Part shown: one piece after another, positions 9,800 through 16,121 of the stretch
Layout: each line of letters opens with the position of its first letter
Numbering within the stretch: position 1 is the stretch's first letter
DNA from: an uncultured Opitutaceae bacterium
GTDB taxonomy: Bacteria > Verrucomicrobiota > Verrucomicrobiia > Opitutales > Opitutaceae
Length of the DNA: 64,000 nucleotides
NCBI GenBank assembly: GCA_964573305.1
Contig: CAZNJG010000024.1
Location: 81-64,080, forward strand
Reading direction: 5' to 3'
Made by a program: the position numbers and the translations under genes
The notes under the pieces: generated by a model
What the model was told of the DNA's origin: nothing
Database searches by the model: none
Seen by the model: only the letters and a program-made list of their open reading frames with translations

Positions 9800-12265
9800 C
9801 TACTTCGCTGCCGGCTCCGCGGTTTTTGATTCTGCACTCACGAGTTCTACCGCCGCTCCCTCAAGGCCCTCCGACTTCGCGCGAAGCACGATCGGCCCGG
9901 GCGTGTGCGTCGTCTGCACGATCACCTGCGCGAGTCCGTTGAAAAGTTTCCGCTCGCTCGCCTTGTCCGCTTCGTGCGAGCCGGGATCGCCATTGCCCAC
10001 GCCGATGATTTTTCCGCCGGTGATTTCAAACGTCACGAGATTGTCCGCGACCGGCACCGCGCGTCCTTGCGCATCGACGACGGAGACATCGATCACGGCG
10101 ACGTCATGATTGTCCGCAACCAGCTGCGTGCGATGCGCGGTGAGCATGAGCGTCGCCGGTGCACCCGTGGTTTCGACGCGTTTGGTTTCCACCACTTTGC
10201 CGCCGCGATAACCGCGGGCTTCCAGCACGCCGGGCGTGTACGCGACTTTCCACGCGAGATGGCCGTTGCGCGGCATGTCCTGTTTGCCGAGCGAGCGTCC
10301 GTTCAAGAACAGCTCGACTGCCTCGTGATTGCTGTGTGCGCGCACCTCGATCTCCTGCCCCTCGCGGCCCGGCCAGTTCCAGTGCGGGAAAATATGCAGC
10401 ACCGGTTCATCGCTCCACCAGGCTTTCAGATAATAAAAACTGTCCTTCGGAAACCCGCAGGTATCGAGAATGCCGAACTGCGAGCTCACCGCGGGCCACG
10501 CGAGCGGATTGGGTTCTCCGCGATAATCAAAACCCGTCCAATAAATCACGCCCGCGAGGTAGGGGCGCGCCGCGTAGTGTTTCCAACCGGTTTCCACATT
10601 TCCGCCCGAGGTTCCGTCTTCAAGCGGCGCGAGATGGCCGCGTTCGCGATCGTCGAAATAAATCCCACGCGTGGCCTGCGTGGTCGTTTCCTCCGTGCCG
10701 AGGATGACCTGCCACGGATACTCCGCGTGCTGTTTGTCGGTGTCGCCGTGCTTGATGTAGTTCACGCCCATCACTTCGACGACTTTCGAAATGCCGCCCC
10801 AGCCGCCGCTGATCGCGACCGTCATCATGCGCGTCGGATCGATCCGCTTCGCGAAGGCCTGCATGGTCGTCGTGATGCGTTCGCCAAACACATTGCCTTC
10901 GATCGCCCACTCCTCGTTGCCGAGCGACCAGAGGATCACACTCGGGTGATTGCGATCGCGCCGGATCATGCGCTCCACCGCGTCGAGATGCAGCGGATTC
11001 GATCCCATCAAACGCGTTTCATCGATCACGAGCATCCCGAGCCGGTCGCAGGCATCGAGCAGTTCCCGGGTCATGGGATTGTGCGAGGCGCGATACACAT
11101 TCGAGCCCATGTCCTTCAAGCGTTGGATGCGGAAATCCTGCAACGCATCCGGAATCGCCGCGCCCACGCCCGCGTGATCCTGGTGATTGTTCGTGCCCTT
11201 CAACTTCACGTGTTTCCCGTTCAGAAAAAATCCTTCGTCCGGATCGAAGCGAATCGTGCGAATGCCGAAGCGCGTCTCCGTCCGGTCGATCGCAACACCG
11301 CCCGCGTTCACCTCCGCCACGAGCGTGTACAAGATCGGCGTCTCCAGCGACCAGAGCCGCGGCGCCGTCACGGTCAGCGTCGCGCCGAGCTCCGCGGTCT
11401 CACCCGCCGCCAGCGTGCGCGCCGCCGTCGTGGATTCGGCCACGTTCTTCCCGTCGGCATCGATCACGCGATAGTTCACCGATACTTCCGCCGCATCCGC
11501 CTTCCGCAGCGCATGCGTCACTTCCGAACGCACGATCACCTGCGTCGCGCCCGCGGCATCGATTTCGGTCACGATCGCCGTGCCGTCCGCGACGAGGTGT
11601 ATCGGCGCGGTTTTTTCCAGCCACACATGCCGGTAGATGCCCGCGCCTTCGTAGAACCAGCCCTCCTCCATCGTCGCGTCCACGCGCACCGCGATCACGT
11701 TTTCCCCGCCATAATTCAGGTAGTCGGAAACGTCATATCGAAAATTCAAATACCCGCTCGGCTCCTCGCCGAGATAGAAGCCGTTGACCCACACGCGCGA
11801 CGCGCGAAACACGCCGTCGAACGCCACGCTGATCCGCCGCCCGAGATCCTCCGCGGGGATGCGAAAGGTCTTTCGATACCAGCCGACATTCACGTCGGGA
11901 AATCCCGGCCCCACCGCGCGGTAGCCGTGGCTGTGCGAGCCGTTCGCCGCGAACGGCATCTCCACCGCCCAGTCGTGCGGCAGATCGAGCATGCGCCACG
12001 CCGAGTCGTCGAACTTCCCCACCGGCGCCGCCGGCCCGTCGCCGAAACCGGTCTTCGTGATGTAGGAAAAATACCCCGTCGCGTGCCCGTGGTCTTTTTT
12101 CGTGTCGCTCGGATGCCCGAAGGCAAAGCGCCAGTCATCGTTCCAGCGGATGCGCTCGCGCCCGGCCGCCGGCTGCGCGACCGCTGCCGACGACGAGGTG
12201 CAAACACCCAGCGCGCAAAAGAACACGCTCAAAAAACGAAACGAAACGAACGGAGCCAGATTCAT
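9800..12265 (-). CDS. Glycoside hydrolase family 2 (beta-galactosidase/beta-glucuronidase-like), secreted
   Basis: Signal peptide MNLAPFVSFRFLSVFFCALGVCTSSSAAVA. The GH2 acid/base region is RDRNHPSVILWSLGNEE, and there are WTGFDYRGEP and sugar-binding N-terminal motifs. The start at 12265 was chosen over the 12652 ORF extension. Confidence 0.85.
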   Translation of the reverse strand: MNLAPFVSFRFLSVFFCALGVCTSSSAAVAQPAAGRERIRWNDDWRFAFGHPSDTKKDHGHATGYFSYITKTGFGDGPAAPVGKFDDSAWRMLDLPHDWAVEMPFAANGSHSHGYRAVGPGFPDVNVGWYRKTFRIPAEDLGRRISVAFDGVFRASRVWVNGFYLGEEPSGYLNFRYDVSDYLNYGGENVIAVRVDATMEEGWFYEGAGIYRHVWLEKTAPIHLVADGTAIVTEIDAAGATQVIVRSEVTHALRKADAAEVSVNYRVIDADGKNVAESTTAARTLAAGETAELGATLTVTAPRLWSLETPILYTLVAEVNAGGVAIDRTETRFGIRTIRFDPDEGFFLNGKHVKLKGTNNHQDHAGVGAAIPDALQDFRIQRLKDMGSNVYRASHNPMTRELLDACDRLGMLVIDETRLMGSNPLHLDAVERMIRRDRNHPSVILWSLGNEEWAIEGNVFGERITTTMQAFAKRIDPTRMMTVAISGGWGGISKVVEVMGVNYIKHGDTDKQHAEYPWQVILGTEETTTQATRGIYFDDRERGHLAPLEDGTSGGNVETGWKHYAARPYLAGVIYWTGFDYRGEPNPLAWPAVSSQFGILDTCGFPKDSFYYLKAWWSDEPVLHIFPHWNWPGREGQEIEVRAHSNHEAVELFLNGRSLGKQDMPRNGHLAWKVAYTPGVLEARGYRGGKVVETKRVETTGAPATLMLTAHRTQLVADNHDVAVIDVSVVDAQGRAVPVADNLVTFEITGGKIIGVGNGDPGSHEADKASERKLFNGLAQVIVQTTHTPGPIVLRAKSEGLEGAAVELVSAESKTAEPAAK

Positions 12266-12508
12266 GGAATCACAGGGTCGGGGGAACGGGGAAACGGAAC
12301 GGGCAACGCGGAAAGAAAAGACGCAAGCCGGGTGTGAAGGAAAGCGATTTAACACTAAATCTGCCATTCCACGCCGCGCATCACGATTCGGGAAGTTTCT
12401 CCACCCCGGAGATGAGACGCCTGCCGATGGAGGCGCGACGCCCCCGTCGCGCATTTGCTCCCATCGCCTGACAACGTCTCTCGTCGCGCATGACGGGGAC
12501 GCATTCCC

Positions 12509-12570
12509 TCCTGTTAATCCTCCAAATCCTGTCCGGAAAATGAGACAGGATTCACAGGATTTACAGGATG
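12509..12570. repeat. Nested imperfect palindrome containing the CCTGTTAATCC / AATCCTGTC repeat motif
   Basis: Sequence cctgttaatcc tcc aaatcctgtc cggaaaatga gacaggatt cac aggatttacagg. The inner arm aatcctgtc/gacaggatt is perfect. The outer arm cctgttaatcc/ggatttacagg has one mismatch. Confidence 0.7.
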
Positions 12571-12779
12571 CGCGGAAGCGAGGGGGCGGCTTCCCGAAGA
12601 GCTGACGGAGACGTCGGGCGTTCCCAAGCCAAGCGCGGACGATGCGGAGCAACGTCCCTACCTCGGAGGCCGACGGATGTCCTTGGGCGTTCCACGGCGG
12701 TGTGATGCGCCGAACACGTTTCGCGCTGCATCCGGGCTTGCGAGGGCGGCACAGGATTCGCGTAATCGCCCGCTCGACC

Positions 12780-12855
12780 GTCCCCGTAGCTCAACTGGAT
12801 AGAGCAGCGGTTTCCTAAACCGCGTATCCCGGTTCAAGTCCGGGCGGGGGCACCA
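12780..12855 (+). tRNA. tRNA-Arg (anticodon CCU)
   Basis: Hand-folded cloverleaf of 76 nt. Acceptor GTCCCCG/CGGGGGC, D-arm GCTC-AACTGGATA-GAGC, anticodon arm GCGGT-TTCCTAA-ACCGC (U33, CCT, A37). T-arm CCCGG-TTCAAGT-CCGGG, discriminator A, and an encoded CCA. Confidence 0.9.
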
Positions 12856-12889
12856 GGTTCAAACGCCGCTCTCGCGTGGGTTTGTCGCG

Positions 12890-12955
12890 GGAACCAATTC
12901 TCGGCCAAAATAAGGGCGAATTGGTTCCAGGATTTTTATTTCGAGAATTGGTTCC
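12890..12955. repeat. Three copies of a GAATTGGTTCC motif (one inverted), forming a 14-bp inverted repeat
   Basis: ggaaccaattctcg (12890-12903) is the exact reverse complement of cgagaattggttcc (12942-12955). A third copy, cgaattggttcc, lies at 12917-12928. The array begins 35 nt after the tRNA CCA end. Confidence 0.8.
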
Positions 12956-13060
12956 AAACGCTCACGACACCTGGAAGCACTGGCTATCGTCGCTAAAATG
13001 ATTCCGCTTTTCTGGCTTCGGAATCCCCTACAGCGCCGCCTTCAAAACAGCGGTCAAAAA

Positions 13061-13249
13061 TCAGTCGTTTAATTTCTTCCAATCCCAATAGGCGCGGACG
13101 TCCAACGGGATTTTTTTCGGATTCAGAACATTCCGATTACCACGCTTCACCTGCGCCCGCATCCAGTTGAGATAAGGAATCGCAGCGGCACGACTTCGCC
13201 CCGCTTGGATCATTATCACCGGCTTCCCACTGCCGAGTGCAAAGTGCAA
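13061..13249 (-). CDS. Small hypothetical ORF (62 aa, TTG start), possibly a gene remnant
   Basis: The ORF lies 36 nt downstream of the PLD-family gene on the same strand, in low-G+C context. It has no recognisable motif, and the start codon is TTG (13249-13247). Confidence 0.3.
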   Translation of the reverse strand: MHFALGSGKPVIMIQAGRSRAAAIPYLNWMRAQVKRGNRNVLNPKKIPLDVRAYWDWKKLND

Positions 13250-13284
13250 AGCTTGAGGTTGCCCCGATTTGACGGACAGAGGGC

Positions 13285-14493
13285 TCAGCTTTCGCTATCT
13301 CTTTCGTAGCAGATGCAGTCGAGAAGAGCTACGCGGCCGTGCCAGAGATCAACGGTTTGCCCTCCGCTCGGGTTTGGCGACTTCCACCACGGTGAGCTTC
13401 GGATCGGCTCAACCACGGACTCCCAGTAGTTTTCCAATTTCGAAATTGTCCCCACCGACGTTCGAAGAACCCCAGCCAACCGGTTTTTGCTCTTTCCGTT
13501 CACGCAGACAAATTGGTCGGGACGCTTCATGGCCAAAATGCGGGTCATGATGCCCACGGCGACGCCCTTGTCTTTGGCCTCGCGGAAAAGCGCGATGTAC
13601 CGCTCGACGGCTTCCCGTGAAACCGGACCGGTGATTGGAATTTCATCGAGAGCTATCGAGATTTTTCCGGAGATGTCCTCGAAGACGCTGTTAAATTCGC
13701 CAGCGACGGTGTTGGAACCGAAGAGCTGCCAGTCAACGAGGCCCTCCTTTGGCGCCAAACCGGCTACCCGCTTCTGCTCCCACAGTGAAAACTGAGAAAA
13801 GTGTCCTTTGGACGCGAAGTACTGACGAAAAATATTCAGGATTTGGACTCTGTCCTCGAACTTGAATGTGTAGGCGCTGCCGATCGCTCTCGAATAATTG
13901 TTCCAGTCCATGTCCAGCACCTCGGACAACTTGAAATCGATTTCTGGAGCGGGTAGCTGGTCATCTTCCCACGGAGCAATGTCCCGCATCGAATTTCGGC
14001 GGGCGTTCCGCTGGTCGATGTACTTTTCCATTTCCTCCTTCGTGAGCGGATCGAGCGGGTCGAAGTAGCTGTTGATGAGAGAATGCGTCTGCGCGTAAAC
14101 CTGCTCGGAGCCTTGGGTGTCGCTCGTGACAAAAAGCGATGCCTCGGAATTGAGCACAAAACCTCCGCGCGTGAAATTCGCGCTACCGACGATGACCGCC
14201 CAATCGGAGGGGGAATTCTCGAAGAGATAAACTTTGGGATGAAAAACTCCGGCGGTCCGGAAATTGAATCGGACATTTGGATGATCCATCCAGGCGCGCA
14301 TAAACTCCGGATCTGTCTGAAAGAAGTGCGTACCAATAACGGCCCTCTTCACCTTCGACTTGCTCCATGTCAGTTGATGACCGAGCTCAAACTGCTGCGT
14401 CGCCCACGCCACGGCAAAGCGCACCTGGCTGAATTTGCGCAGACACTCCCGGACCGTTTTGTCGTGCTCTTGCGCGGTGGTAAGAAGCTTCAT
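13285..14493 (-). CDS. PLD-superfamily (single HKD motif) nuclease-like protein with an uncharacterised ~220-aa C-terminal domain
   Basis: The HKD-type motif is GVFHPKVYLFENSPSDWAVIVGSANFTRGG (HxK...GSxN). A single copy implies a Nuc/BfiI-like dimer. The C-terminal half (DFKLSEVLDMDW...RILAMKRPDQFVCVN...WWKSPNP...LWHGRVALLDCICYE) has no motif I can name. Confidence 0.75.
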   Translation of the reverse strand: MKLLTTAQEHDKTVRECLRKFSQVRFAVAWATQQFELGHQLTWSKSKVKRAVIGTHFFQTDPEFMRAWMDHPNVRFNFRTAGVFHPKVYLFENSPSDWAVIVGSANFTRGGFVLNSEASLFVTSDTQGSEQVYAQTHSLINSYFDPLDPLTKEEMEKYIDQRNARRNSMRDIAPWEDDQLPAPEIDFKLSEVLDMDWNNYSRAIGSAYTFKFEDRVQILNIFRQYFASKGHFSQFSLWEQKRVAGLAPKEGLVDWQLFGSNTVAGEFNSVFEDISGKISIALDEIPITGPVSREAVERYIALFREAKDKGVAVGIMTRILAMKRPDQFVCVNGKSKNRLAGVLRTSVGTISKLENYWESVVEPIRSSPWWKSPNPSGGQTVDLWHGRVALLDCICYERDSES

Positions 14494-14497
14494 GGGA

Positions 14498-15013
14498 TCA
14501 GGCGGCGCACGGAATGCCGCACACGCGGGAGATTCTGTGTTCCTCAGCTACGAGAAGCTGGCACTGCCGGAGTTGATTGCGGGACATGGAGGCCGACGTC
14601 TTATGATTGCGCGCGTCGTCGATGTACTTGCCCGGACCGTTGTAGAGCACCTCGTAGCGGCCCGACTGGTCGAATTCGATGACTAGAAGTAGATCGAAGG
14701 TCCGTTTCACCAACCCGAGGCCGACACCTGCCGATTCACGCTTGGCCTTTTGCGTAGCCTTCACCTGTACCAAACGACCGTCGGCGGTTTTGAAATCGTG
14801 ATCCTTTTCCCCCACCCGCAGCTTCGATAAACCGAAATGCTGCTGCGCGATCGCTTCACCGATGTCCCCGATGAACTTTCCATCCATAGTGAAGGAGTGA
14901 TCGGGGAACGCTGCGCAAAGCTCGTTCTTGGCTGCGTAGATTTTCGCGAGCGCTTGGGGAATCGGATCAGGGGCAAAAAAGTAGGTGGTGGTCACGTGAG
15001 AAGGCATCGACAT
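14498..15013 (-). CDS. Small PD-(D/E)xK (Mrr-like) nuclease-fold protein, hypothetical
   Basis: The pattern GDIGEAIAQQHFG...EKDHDFKTADGRLVQVKAT matches the E...D...(Q/E)xK arrangement of Mrr-type restriction endonuclease cores. Its stop lies 4 nt before the PLD gene start. The start is ATG 15013 or 15007; the ORF track start at 15037 is an alternative. Confidence 0.6.
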   Translation of the reverse strand: MSMPSHVTTTYFFAPDPIPQALAKIYAAKNELCAAFPDHSFTMDGKFIGDIGEAIAQQHFGLSKLRVGEKDHDFKTADGRLVQVKATQKAKRESAGVGLGLVKRTFDLLLVIEFDQSGRYEVLYNGPGKYIDDARNHKTSASMSRNQLRQCQLLVAEEHRISRVCGIPCAA

Positions 15014-15090
15014 CCGGCATGAAAAATTTAGCGGCAATCAAAACCTAAACCGGCCTATCGGAAGTGGTTGCCGCAAAGCGAGCCAGCCCT

Positions 15091-15116
15091 CTCCTGTTGA
15101 TCCTGTTAATCCCGTC
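15091..15116. repeat. Copy of the CTCCTGTT(G/A)ATCCTGTTAATCC repeat family
   Basis: ctcctgttgatcctgttaatcccgtc. Related copies lie at 12506-12535 and 23031-23060. Confidence 0.7.
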
Positions 15117-15142
15117 TCGAATTTAGTGCGGTTTCAATTGAA

Positions 15143-15206
15143 CTGTAGCCGGATCGAGCTGTGTCCGGCGGGCCGCCGGACACCACACGCGGGCCGCGTG
15201 TGCTCC
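15143..15206. repeat. REP-like element with two consecutive GC-rich hairpins
   Basis: ctgtagccggatcgagct, then hairpins gtgtccggcg-ggc-cgccggacac and cacacgcg-ggc-cgcgtgtg. The core ccggatcgagctgtgtccggcggg resembles the reverse complement of 21178-21202 (ccggtcgaaccgtgtccggcggg). Confidence 0.65.
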
Positions 15207-15506
15207 CCGGAAACCCATCCCGGTGTGACAGTGGACTCACGTTCCATGGCGCAGATACAACGCTATGGGGTTAGTTAAACCGCCCTGAAATTGCACAGCC
15301 TGAGCGAGGCTCACTACTTCCGAATTCGTTCAGGCCCGTTTTCCAAGTTGGAAAAAATGACATGTCTCCGATCACGCCGGCTCGCGCCAGAGGTCATGAG
15401 CATGCCCGGCATAACCCGTTTTCCTTGGCGAGGCTTTCCCTTTCAGCCGCGGCGGTTGCTCCGCGCAACCGCTCTACGTCGCCACATTTCACGGAGAATC
15501 CGCGGC

Positions 15507-16121
15507 TCAGTCGATCAGCAAGGCGATCTGCACACCGGGGCCGTGGACGCCTTCGATCAGGATGCCTTCCACGTCGGCCGTTTTTGACGGGCCGGTGCAG
15601 AAGATGATGTTCGCATCCTTGCCGAGCGCGGCGATGGCGGCGGCCACATCGGGAAAGATCGTTTCGCGTCGCAACACCGCCGCATGCACCCAGGGCGTCA
15701 ACGCACCGAGGCGGCGCGAGGTCGTTGTATCGTCCAAAATGATCGATCCGGTTTCCGCAATCGCTCCGGCAGCGCGCGTGATGCCAAACGCATACTCGTC
15801 GACCTGCGCGCGATCGTAGTCGGTCGAAACGTTGAACTCCGGGCCAAAGGCCGGTGCGAGTTCGGCCCATAGCGCGGGATCGCAGTAGCCGCGCAGATGT
15901 CCTTTCTCGCGGAGCCACGCGGCGAGCGCGGAGGCGCCGACCATCGGCGTGCCGTTGACCAGCTTCTGGCGTTCGCTGAACGCCGTCCAGCGGTCGGCTT
16001 CGCGGTCGAAGGCGGGCATGGTGGCCGCGCTGTCATTGAATTCTGGATACGCGGCGCGTTTGGGCAGCGGCGCGAGGGCCGAGCGGACGCGGTTGAGAAT
16101 GGCTTCGCGGGAGGCGCTCAT
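15507..16121 (-). CDS. lutC: Lactate utilization protein C (LUD domain, LutC/YkgG)
   Basis: The protein MSASREAILNRVRSAL...IIFCTGPSKTADVEGILIEGVHGPGVQIALL is typical of the LutC family. Its ATG at 16121 overlaps the lutB stop (ATGA at 16118-16121). The 540-aa ORF extension is a high-GC artefact. Confidence 0.85.
   Translation of the reverse strand: MSASREAILNRVRSALAPLPKRAAYPEFNDSAATMPAFDREADRWTAFSERQKLVNGTPMVGASALAAWLREKGHLRGYCDPALWAELAPAFGPEFNVSTDYDRAQVDEYAFGITRAAGAIAETGSIILDDTTTSRRLGALTPWVHAAVLRRETIFPDVAAAIAALGKDANIIFCTGPSKTADVEGILIEGVHGPGVQIALLID

Follow-up and report, generated by a model that had tools for sequence, protein, structure and literature searches.

An acquired low-G+C islet beside a tRNA-Arg(CCU) gene of an uncultured Opitutaceae bacterium, with two restriction endonuclease candidates

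A stretch of 64,000 nucleotides (nt) from an uncultured Opitutaceae bacterium (assembly GCA_964573305.1, contig CAZNJG010000024.1, positions 81 to 64,080), referred to here as the window, contains a short islet of low G+C (guanine plus cytosine) content located just after a tRNA-Arg(CCU) gene. The islet harbors two adjacent genes, the upstream one encoding a protein of 169 amino acids (aa) that belongs to the Pfam family DUF6998, and the downstream one encoding a protein of 402 aa, in which a PLD nuclease domain is followed by an all-alpha C-terminal domain (C-domain). This arrangement is best explained (with a rough probability of 0.6) as a mini defence islet in which two restriction endonuclease candidates, each encoded by one gene, autonomous and with an evolutionary history of its own, are probably co-transcribed. 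An earlier annotation of the same DNA, made from the sequence alone (the first-pass annotation), had proposed that the two genes form a coupled two-nuclease system. This candidate new two-gene defence system is not upheld, since homologues of the two proteins never co-occur and no conserved partner was found for either of them; a defence role of the two nucleases is plausible. The features on which the analysis is centered are the following (positions are those of the window):

12780..12855, plus strand: tRNA-Arg(CCU), found by ARAGORN and by Rfam (60.7 bits); the variable segment is bordered on the left by its 3' end
12856..15506, no strand: the islet, 2651 nt, G+C 0.552, missing from the closest relatives
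14498..15007, minus strand: DUF6998 protein, 169 aa, a BisI-like PD-QxK endonuclease candidate (Pfam PF22522)
14855-14857 (E51), 14795-14797 (D71), 14765-14767 (Q81) and 14759-14761 (K83), minus strand: active-site residues of the DUF6998 protein
13285..14493 (stop included), minus strand: 402-aa PLD nuclease and alpha-domain protein, with full-length homologues and an AlphaFold2 (AF2) model
13984..14493, minus strand: N-terminal PLD (HKD) nuclease domain, residues 1-170 (Pfam PLDc_2, profile, Foldseek)
14239-14241 (H85), 14233-14235 (K87), 14176-14187 (G103-S104-x-N106) and 14143-14145 (E117), minus strand: HKD motif residues, coordinates checked
13930..13983, minus strand: predicted disordered linker, residues 171-188 (predicted local distance difference test, pLDDT, < 50)
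13288..13926, minus strand: all-alpha C-domain, residues 190-402 (AF2, 11 helices), a putative DNA-target recognition module

The two proteins encoded by the islet

DUF6998 protein. The smaller protein scores 111 bits on PF22522, whose cut-off is 27. In the first-pass annotation, it had been reported as a 171-aa protein with an Mrr-like PD-(D/E)xK pattern; the open reading frame (ORF) starting from 15013 does exist (171 aa), as does a longer one with a TTG start at 15037 (179 aa), but the start at 15007 is the one adopted in this analysis, and the pattern itself was confirmed in the form PD-QxK. A profile built on 33 DUF6998 members matches the restriction enzymes Eco15I (PDB 8q5m, E 4e-7) and NhoI (E 0.03). 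In the reciprocal test on PF22522, the Eco15I fragment scored 39.3 bits and a 43-residue NhoI fragment 27.0 bits; both values are at or above the cut-off, and therefore the BisI-family enzymes fall in DUF6998 by Pfam's threshold. PADLOC gave a weak match to the models of type II methyl-directed restriction enzymes (mREase_II, E 2e-5).

The residues E51, D71 and Q81-V82-K83 are intact in the window and invariant across the 33 DUF6998 sequences, and the active site aligns with GDYAE / AD / QIK of Eco15I and with E / WD / QVK of NhoI. It is known that the BisI family is composed of homodimeric PD-QxK ("Mrr-like") enzymes, in which the helix-1 Glu, the 'PD' Asp and the QVK/QIK residues are all essential (PMC11347163). 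The AF2 model of the DUF6998 protein has a pLDDT of 93.4, and in its Foldseek search the ranks from 1 to 11 are all occupied by Eco15I/NhoI (E 2e-5 to 4e-3, probability 1.0), followed by DpnI and PvuII. At the position of the external methyl-pocket residue (Arg84 in NhoI; R, T or V in the BisI family), the window protein has Thr85, which is invariant in DUF6998 and would be compatible with the BisI external pocket, without being diagnostic of it. The window copy deviates at 2/50 conserved columns, and it has relatives at 60-67% identity. Judged from its sequence, the DUF6998 protein belongs to the BisI-type superfamily, which does not imply a GCNGC/5-methylcytosine (5mC) specificity. The gene pair had been presented as a candidate undescribed module; this does not hold for its smaller member, which can be assigned to a described kind (DUF6998/BisI, with Eco15I and NhoI).

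PLD protein. A single HKD motif and a C-terminal domain that could not be assigned had been reported for the 402-aa protein, and both points were borne out by the profile and structure searches. The protein has 511 full-length homologues at 32-37% identity and no relative above 37%. PLDc_2 scores 35.2 bits on it (cut-off 27), and the residues H85-P-K87, G103-S-A-N106 and E117 are invariant in 32 PLD-family sequences. The profile of the family matches the restriction enzymes SauUSI (7clg, E 6e-12), NgoAVII (4rct, E 8e-5) and BfiI (2c1l, E 2e-3), and the same three enzymes, in the same order, are at the top of the Foldseek search performed with the AF2 model (pLDDT 86.7), in which Zucchini, PLD3 and PPK were also matched. 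The RE_NgoFVII model is matched by 30/32 members of the family, the window copy being below the cut-off (21.4 vs 23.8 bits).

The PLD family is patchily distributed, with 241 matches among 185,579 species genomes belonging to many bacterial and some archaeal phyla. Its genes average 6.7 G+C points under their flanks, being lower in 62 of the 70 loci (p 6e-12). Among 2.9 million viral contigs there are 9 matches to the PLD family and 7 to DUF6998; a viral origin as the typical case was thus rejected, both being occasionally phage-borne. No description of DUF6998 or of the PLD plus alpha-domain family was found in the literature on defence; the latter is experimentally uncharacterised and is the more novel element of the islet.

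All-alpha C-domain. The C-terminal domain has no Pfam match of its own (DUF6308 is matched below threshold in 13/32 homologues, at residues ~273-360), no PHROG match and no PDB sequence match, and no Foldseek match to it was found in PDB or BFVD with the 402-aa model as the query. Its profile retrieved 1,190 representative proteins (clusters at 50% identity; 489 at E <= 1e-30) among 1.84 billion, nearly all of them ~395-410 aa long and with the same two-domain layout as the window protein. One of the representatives (P0293) is a 521-aa McrB (AAA_5 plus McrB_lid) carrying the C-domain, with 34% identity over 222 residues (BLASTP, E 8e-35). This McrB begins directly with the Walker A motif, and the C-domain is inserted between Walker A and the remaining AAA+ core, in place of the N-terminal DNA-binding domain; in both of its loci (L188 142-3038 and L189 31-2927), the McrC gene comes next with a 4-nt overlap. 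In McrB homologues, the variable non-ATPase domain binds the modified DNA target. Since the C-domain is shared with an McrB, where the variable domain binds DNA, the analogy suggests that it is, most simply, a DNA-target recognition module.

The domain also exists as a stand-alone protein (P0173); a 221-aa version (L190 990-1655) has no nuclease in its vicinity and is flanked by a glycoside-hydrolase-like gene on one side and membrane proteins on the other. A PLD-family member of 519 aa (P0273) has ~120 extra C-terminal residues past the all-alpha domain. An HhH-GPD-like glycosylase or an SBD-like reader was unsupported as an identity for the domain, with no Foldseek or profile match to solved structures, and a kinship with the genes found downstream of other DUF6998 genes (the 254-aa partner of the closest relatives and the FRG protein, see below) was rejected, the sequences being unrelated.

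An acquired segment next to tRNA-Arg(CCU)

The segment 12856-15060 has a G+C content of 0.545 vs a window mean of 0.631, which is ~4 standard deviations (sd) lower (sd 0.020 in 2205-nt windows) and makes it the lowest-G+C stretch of its size within the whole 64 kb. The G+C content at third codon positions (GC3) is 0.68 and 0.69 in the two islet genes vs 0.76-0.80 in the neighbouring genes. Sliding G+C and GC3 thus confirm the low-G+C foreign islet abutting the 3' end of tRNA-Arg(CCU) that had been described on the basis of hand counts (27/60, 27/60 and 41/60), which were exact.

The comparison with the closest contigs found, i.e., two related Opitutaceae contigs (L191 and L192) whose LutC is 75% identical to that of the window, defined the borders of the islet. 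The nucleotide identity with these contigs is 76-81% across the FGGY kinase, lutA, lutB and lutC genes; the homology ends precisely with the stop codon of lutC (window 15507) and restarts at tRNA-Arg(CCU) (window 12855-12759, 92% identity). The start at 12856 therefore stands, and the right edge falls at 15506 and not at 15060 as first reported. The distance from the stop codon of lutC to the 3' end of the tRNA is 70 nt in L191 and L192 and 2651 nt in the window; the islet is therefore an insertion, and it is horizontally acquired. Its flanks are made up of housekeeping genes, with an ABC sugar transporter and a GH2 gene on one side and LutC, LutB and the FGGY kinase on the other.

The absence of a methylase and of an integrase from the islet, already noted in the first-pass annotation, was confirmed; in particular, neither the ORF list nor Pfam disclosed an integrase ORF. 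No direct repeat of the tRNA 3' end and no att-like flanking repeat was found above chance in 12700-15700, the best match (12/15 nt) being in the anticodon region. The islet does not match an integrase-mobilised, tRNA-targeting island, given the lack of an integrase and of a distal tRNA 3' repeat. The search of a plasmid collection matched the tRNA alone. The tRNA location had been regarded as a sign of a hotspot; as a trait of the PLD family it was rejected, a tRNA being present within ~400 nt at only 2/60 loci. The synteny with L191 is also broken 5' of the tRNA (window 9800-12759 vs L191 5963-8300), where the window has the ABC sugar transporter and the GH2 glycosidase and L191 has FeeM-like and hexapeptide-transferase genes; synteny being lost on both sides, the tRNA-Arg(CCU) gene is a general rearrangement breakpoint.

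The remaining features of the islet are the following:

12890..12955, no strand: GGAACCAATTC in three copies (one direct, two inverted), the sole matches in the window, within 66 nt just past the tRNA
13061..13249, minus strand: 62-aa TTG-initiated ORF (ORF list), no family match
15008..15506, no strand: non-coding right part of the islet, the putative home of the promoter of the two-gene unit

In the GGAACCAATTC array, the first hairpin is followed by GGATTTTTATTT (fold z-score -1.9) and is probably the tRNA terminator; the array may also represent a protein-binding array or the remnant of an element end. The 62-aa ORF is present as previously listed, but its status as a gene is doubtful, since Pfam, PADLOC, NCBIfam and PHROG all gave no match and the fetched loci contain no relative of it. 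The two nuclease genes were confirmed to lie on the minus strand 4 nt apart (spacer TCCC), the DUF6998 gene being upstream. A promoter/terminator scan of the islet remained at background, with no internal call between the two genes, and no sigma-70-like promoter was matched in 15008..15506; we infer that the two genes are probably co-transcribed. Two G+C-rich inverted repeats (GTGTCCGGCGG/CCGCCGGACAC and CCGGACACCACACGCGG/CCGCGTGTGCTCCCCGG) adjoin each other at 15161-15210, and downstream of lutC the minus strand carries a terminator-like hairpin (15359-15378) that includes a T-run. Rfam, at a permissive threshold, disclosed the tRNA and no other RNA.

Genomic neighbourhoods and competing explanations

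In order to assess the existence of an association between the two families, their neighbourhoods were inspected in 80 PLD-family genome loci (±8 kb) and in 91 DUF6998 loci from a metagenome scan; the scan gave nothing with a single DUF6998 protein, and its matches were obtained with an alignment of closer relatives. DUF6998 is present in 0/80 PLD-family loci and the PLD family in 0/91 DUF6998 loci. Neighbour clustering of the 80 and 91 loci yielded mostly singletons and no recurrent partner for either family, and no conserved methylase stands beside either of them in these loci. The unequal identity of the relatives (not above 37% for the PLD protein, 60-67% for the DUF6998 protein) indicates as well that the pair did not travel together.

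The 149 immediate neighbours of the PLD-family genes are spread over 100 Pfam families, the commonest being hsdM (5), ParE (3), IS200 (2) and ResIII (2); N6_Mtase occurs in 5/149 of them, all of the type I hsdM kind. The neighbourhoods of DUF6998 are strikingly defence-rich, including type I restriction-modification (R-M) subunits, a type ISP enzyme, Eco57I-like methylase-nucleases, ApeA and GmrSD, together with DUF3800, AAA_13, PDDEXK_4, integrase and RepB. The arrangement hsdR-DUF6998-FRG-hsdM recurs in three loci (L090 3679-8933, L091 49-5164 and L099 2650-6325), in which a 294-aa FRG-domain protein follows DUF6998 with overlapping stop and start codons; in other loci (L082-L084), DUF6998 is alone among housekeeping genes. 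The closest DUF6998 relatives (63-67% identity) carry, 4 nt downstream and in the slot occupied in the window by the PLD gene, a 254-aa gene (L088 728-1492, L089 662-1426 and L092 5485-6249) with a weak match to Trypsin_2 (E 1e-4, below cut-off), and their DNA homology to the window is limited to the DUF6998 gene.

According to the explanation proposed here, the DUF6998 protein would be a homodimer of the BisI/PvuII type, cutting double-stranded DNA within a short site by means of a one-metal PD-QxK active site; most likely it would cut only modified (foreign) DNA, at a site that need not be GCNGC/5mC. In Nuc and BfiI, two HKD domains dimerise into one active site. In the 402-aa protein, the two PLD domains of a dimer might likewise form one active site, and the alpha C-domain, via the flexible linker, might select the DNA target, probably a modification; if so, the enzyme would be harmless to the host without a methylase. 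The two enzymes would act in parallel, as mcrBC and mrr do, and not as subunits of one machine. The modification dependence of both is proposed because neither has a methylase partner and because Eco15I/NhoI and SauUSI, the closest of their characterised relatives, depend on modification.

Several observations weigh against this explanation. The TM-scores of the DUF6998 model to Eco15I/NhoI are just 0.42-0.46, and the dipeptide (H/R)(V/I/T/M) of the BisI internal methyl pocket is not conserved, H-V of Eco15I (139-140) being aligned with S-A; the latter is the consensus of the DUF6998 clade at this position, where the C-terminal alignment is less certain. The window PLD copy is an outlier, being off consensus at 19/84 columns conserved at >=90%, vs 2.5 on average and at most 14 in the other members of the family. 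The changes include near-invariant residues of the C-domain (M261N, G263V, D332N, N335S, G344R, R363P and others), and this copy may have an altered or weakened function, either in specificity or in activity. The neighbours of the PLD family are mostly housekeeping genes and ~5-7% of them are R-M related, so that any enrichment in defence islands would be modest. The McrB fusion represents a single cluster, found on two contigs. Moreover, the proposed modification dependence draws solely on the missing methylase and on the analogy with the nearest characterised relatives, and the 4-nt spacing is also compatible with a functional pair arisen only in this lineage.

Other explanations were considered. 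One or both genes might be orphan or decaying type II-like restriction genes, maybe inactive, with the methylase located elsewhere or lost. Type II enzymes paired with a methylase are indeed found among the kin of the PLD domain (BfiI and NgoAVII) and, in the case of PvuII, among the structural neighbours of the DUF6998 protein; the divergence of the window PLD copy would also agree with decay. However, the 80 and 91 loci contain no conserved methylase beside either family, both ORFs are intact with all the catalytic residues present, the DUF6998 copy deviates at two columns only, and the nearest characterised sequence relatives are modification-dependent; this possibility appears unlikely.

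It is likewise improbable that the two genes are not involved in defence at all, i.e., that they encode nucleases for DNA uptake, repair or scavenging or a PLD enzyme whose substrate is a phosphodiester other than DNA, or that they represent selfish cargo without a host function. Restriction endonucleases rank first in the sequence as well as the structure searches, the PLD family has a patchy cross-phylum distribution and a G+C deficit, its C-domain occurs in an McrB, and DUF6998 is embedded in type I R-M operons. These data have to be set against the composition of the PLD superfamily, which includes phospholipid synthases, polyphosphate kinases and RNA-processing nucleases (Zucchini, PLD3 and PPK being among the Foldseek matches), against the prevalence of housekeeping genes around the PLD family, and against the existence of the C-domain as a stand-alone protein away from nucleases.

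The first-pass proposal amounts to a single new two-gene system of the type IV-like or abortive kind, in which the two nucleases would be subunits or steps and neither would work without the other; it is very unlikely in light of the lack of co-occurrence in the 80 and 91 loci inspected and of the unequal identity of the relatives. The common strand, the 4-nt spacer, the lack of an internal promoter or terminator call and the location of both genes inside one acquired segment speak for it, as does the tight coupling seen between several DUF6998 genes and a downstream gene that differs from case to case (PLD, weak trypsin-like, FRG-domain or ApeA). Yet each family is also found alone between housekeeping genes, and some of the genes downstream of DUF6998 belong to systems known to be autonomous (ApeA, the type ISP enzyme and hsdM). 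A modular version of this idea is likewise very unlikely: DUF6998 would contribute the constant half of a two-gene defence, sensing or nicking DNA, and the downstream gene would be a swappable effector; if it were true, the window pair would be one variant, and the other effectors would be trypsin-like (in the closest relatives), FRG-domain or ApeA-type proteins. Lastly, the least probable reading is that DUF6998 is not autonomous and serves as an accessory nuclease to the adjacent defence system (the PLD enzyme in the islet and type I R-M at other loci), as might be thought from its position between hsdR and hsdM with overlapping stop/start codons in L090, L091 and L099 and from its abutting type ISP, Eco57I-like, GmrSD and ApeA genes elsewhere, since it also stands alone among housekeeping genes in L082-L084, no partner family recurs, and the characterised Eco15I and NhoI are autonomous homodimers (PMC11347163).

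Three smaller points retain their value. The Pfam family DUF6998 ("unknown function") becomes annotatable as a BisI-type PD-QxK restriction endonuclease family, many members of which are embedded in defence operons, those of type I R-M among them. A large, scattered and uncharacterised family (~490-1,190 clusters) combines a SauUSI/BfiI-like PLD nuclease with an all-alpha domain devoid of a structural match. The replacement of the DNA-binding module of one McrB by this C-domain makes it a testable candidate for a new reader of DNA modifications or targets. It is conceivable, even if the odds are somewhat against it, that the C-domain represents a new class of modified-DNA reader, common to ~1,000 PLD-nuclease clusters and to some McrB proteins; in that case, these proteins would amount to a novel type IV restriction family of wide distribution. 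Readers of DNA modifications are of practical interest as enzymes for epigenetic mapping.

Comparison with named systems

According to PADLOC and NCBIfam, no named defence system fits the islet, as far as can be judged from its sequences. The matches of the 402-aa protein to DISARM DrmC, Dpd DpdK, Azaca ZacB, Pbe PbeA and PDC-M27B are limited to the short HKD region (residues ~74-158, E 3e-7 to 0.05); these candidates were discarded, the NCBIfam scores being 14.6 bits vs a cut-off of 133 for DrmC and 12.2 vs 100 bits for DpdK, and their partner genes being missing in the islet.

For the DUF6998 protein, the closest known enzymes are Eco15I and NhoI of the BisI family, which share with it the PF22522 model, a single domain of ~150-175 aa, the PD-QxK site (helix 1 Glu, Asp, QVK) and the lack of a cognate methylase, and which are the nearest solved structures. 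The differences consist of an identity of 18-21%, the low TM-scores and the internal-pocket dipeptide mentioned above, and the frequent embedding of the DUF6998 clade in type I R-M and other defence operons.

As for the 402-aa protein, SauUSI is a type IV enzyme dependent on 5mC/5-hydroxymethylcytosine (PMC3141236). It is the top sequence and structure match to the window PLD domain and, like the window protein, it is a single polypeptide combining a nuclease with a separate target-recognition region and having no methylase. However, SauUSI is 953 aa long, with a superfamily 2 (SF2) helicase/ATPase and another C-terminal target recognition domain, whereas the window protein has 402 aa and an unrelated all-alpha C-domain; no ATPase domain was matched in it, and the similarity is limited to residues 36-208 of SauUSI. 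BfiI and NgoAVII/NgoFVII are similar to the window protein in layout and size, having an N-terminal single-HKD domain followed by a C-terminal DNA-recognition domain in ~350-400 aa. Their C-domain, unlike the all-alpha one of the window protein, is a B3-like beta-barrel, and no match of the 402-aa protein to 2c1l or 4rct beyond the PLD domain was found in either sequence or structure. Cognate methylases accompany these enzymes, and NgoAVII depends in addition on an ATPase N-protein; the islet has neither.

The likeness to McrBC, a type IV system dependent on GTP, lies in the C-domain, which is shared with one McrB and there replaces the variable DNA-binding domain. The islet contains neither an AAA+ GTPase nor McrC, and cleavage would be carried out by the PLD domain with no need for nucleotide hydrolysis. 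The last comparison concerns the E. coli immigration control region (hsdRMS, mrr, mcrBC). The window locus differs from it in being only 2.6 kb long, with two genes of other families, adjacent to a tRNA and without a type I system, but in both cases independent restriction enzymes (in the islet, candidate ones), some of them modification-dependent, are packed in a variable, horizontally acquired locus.

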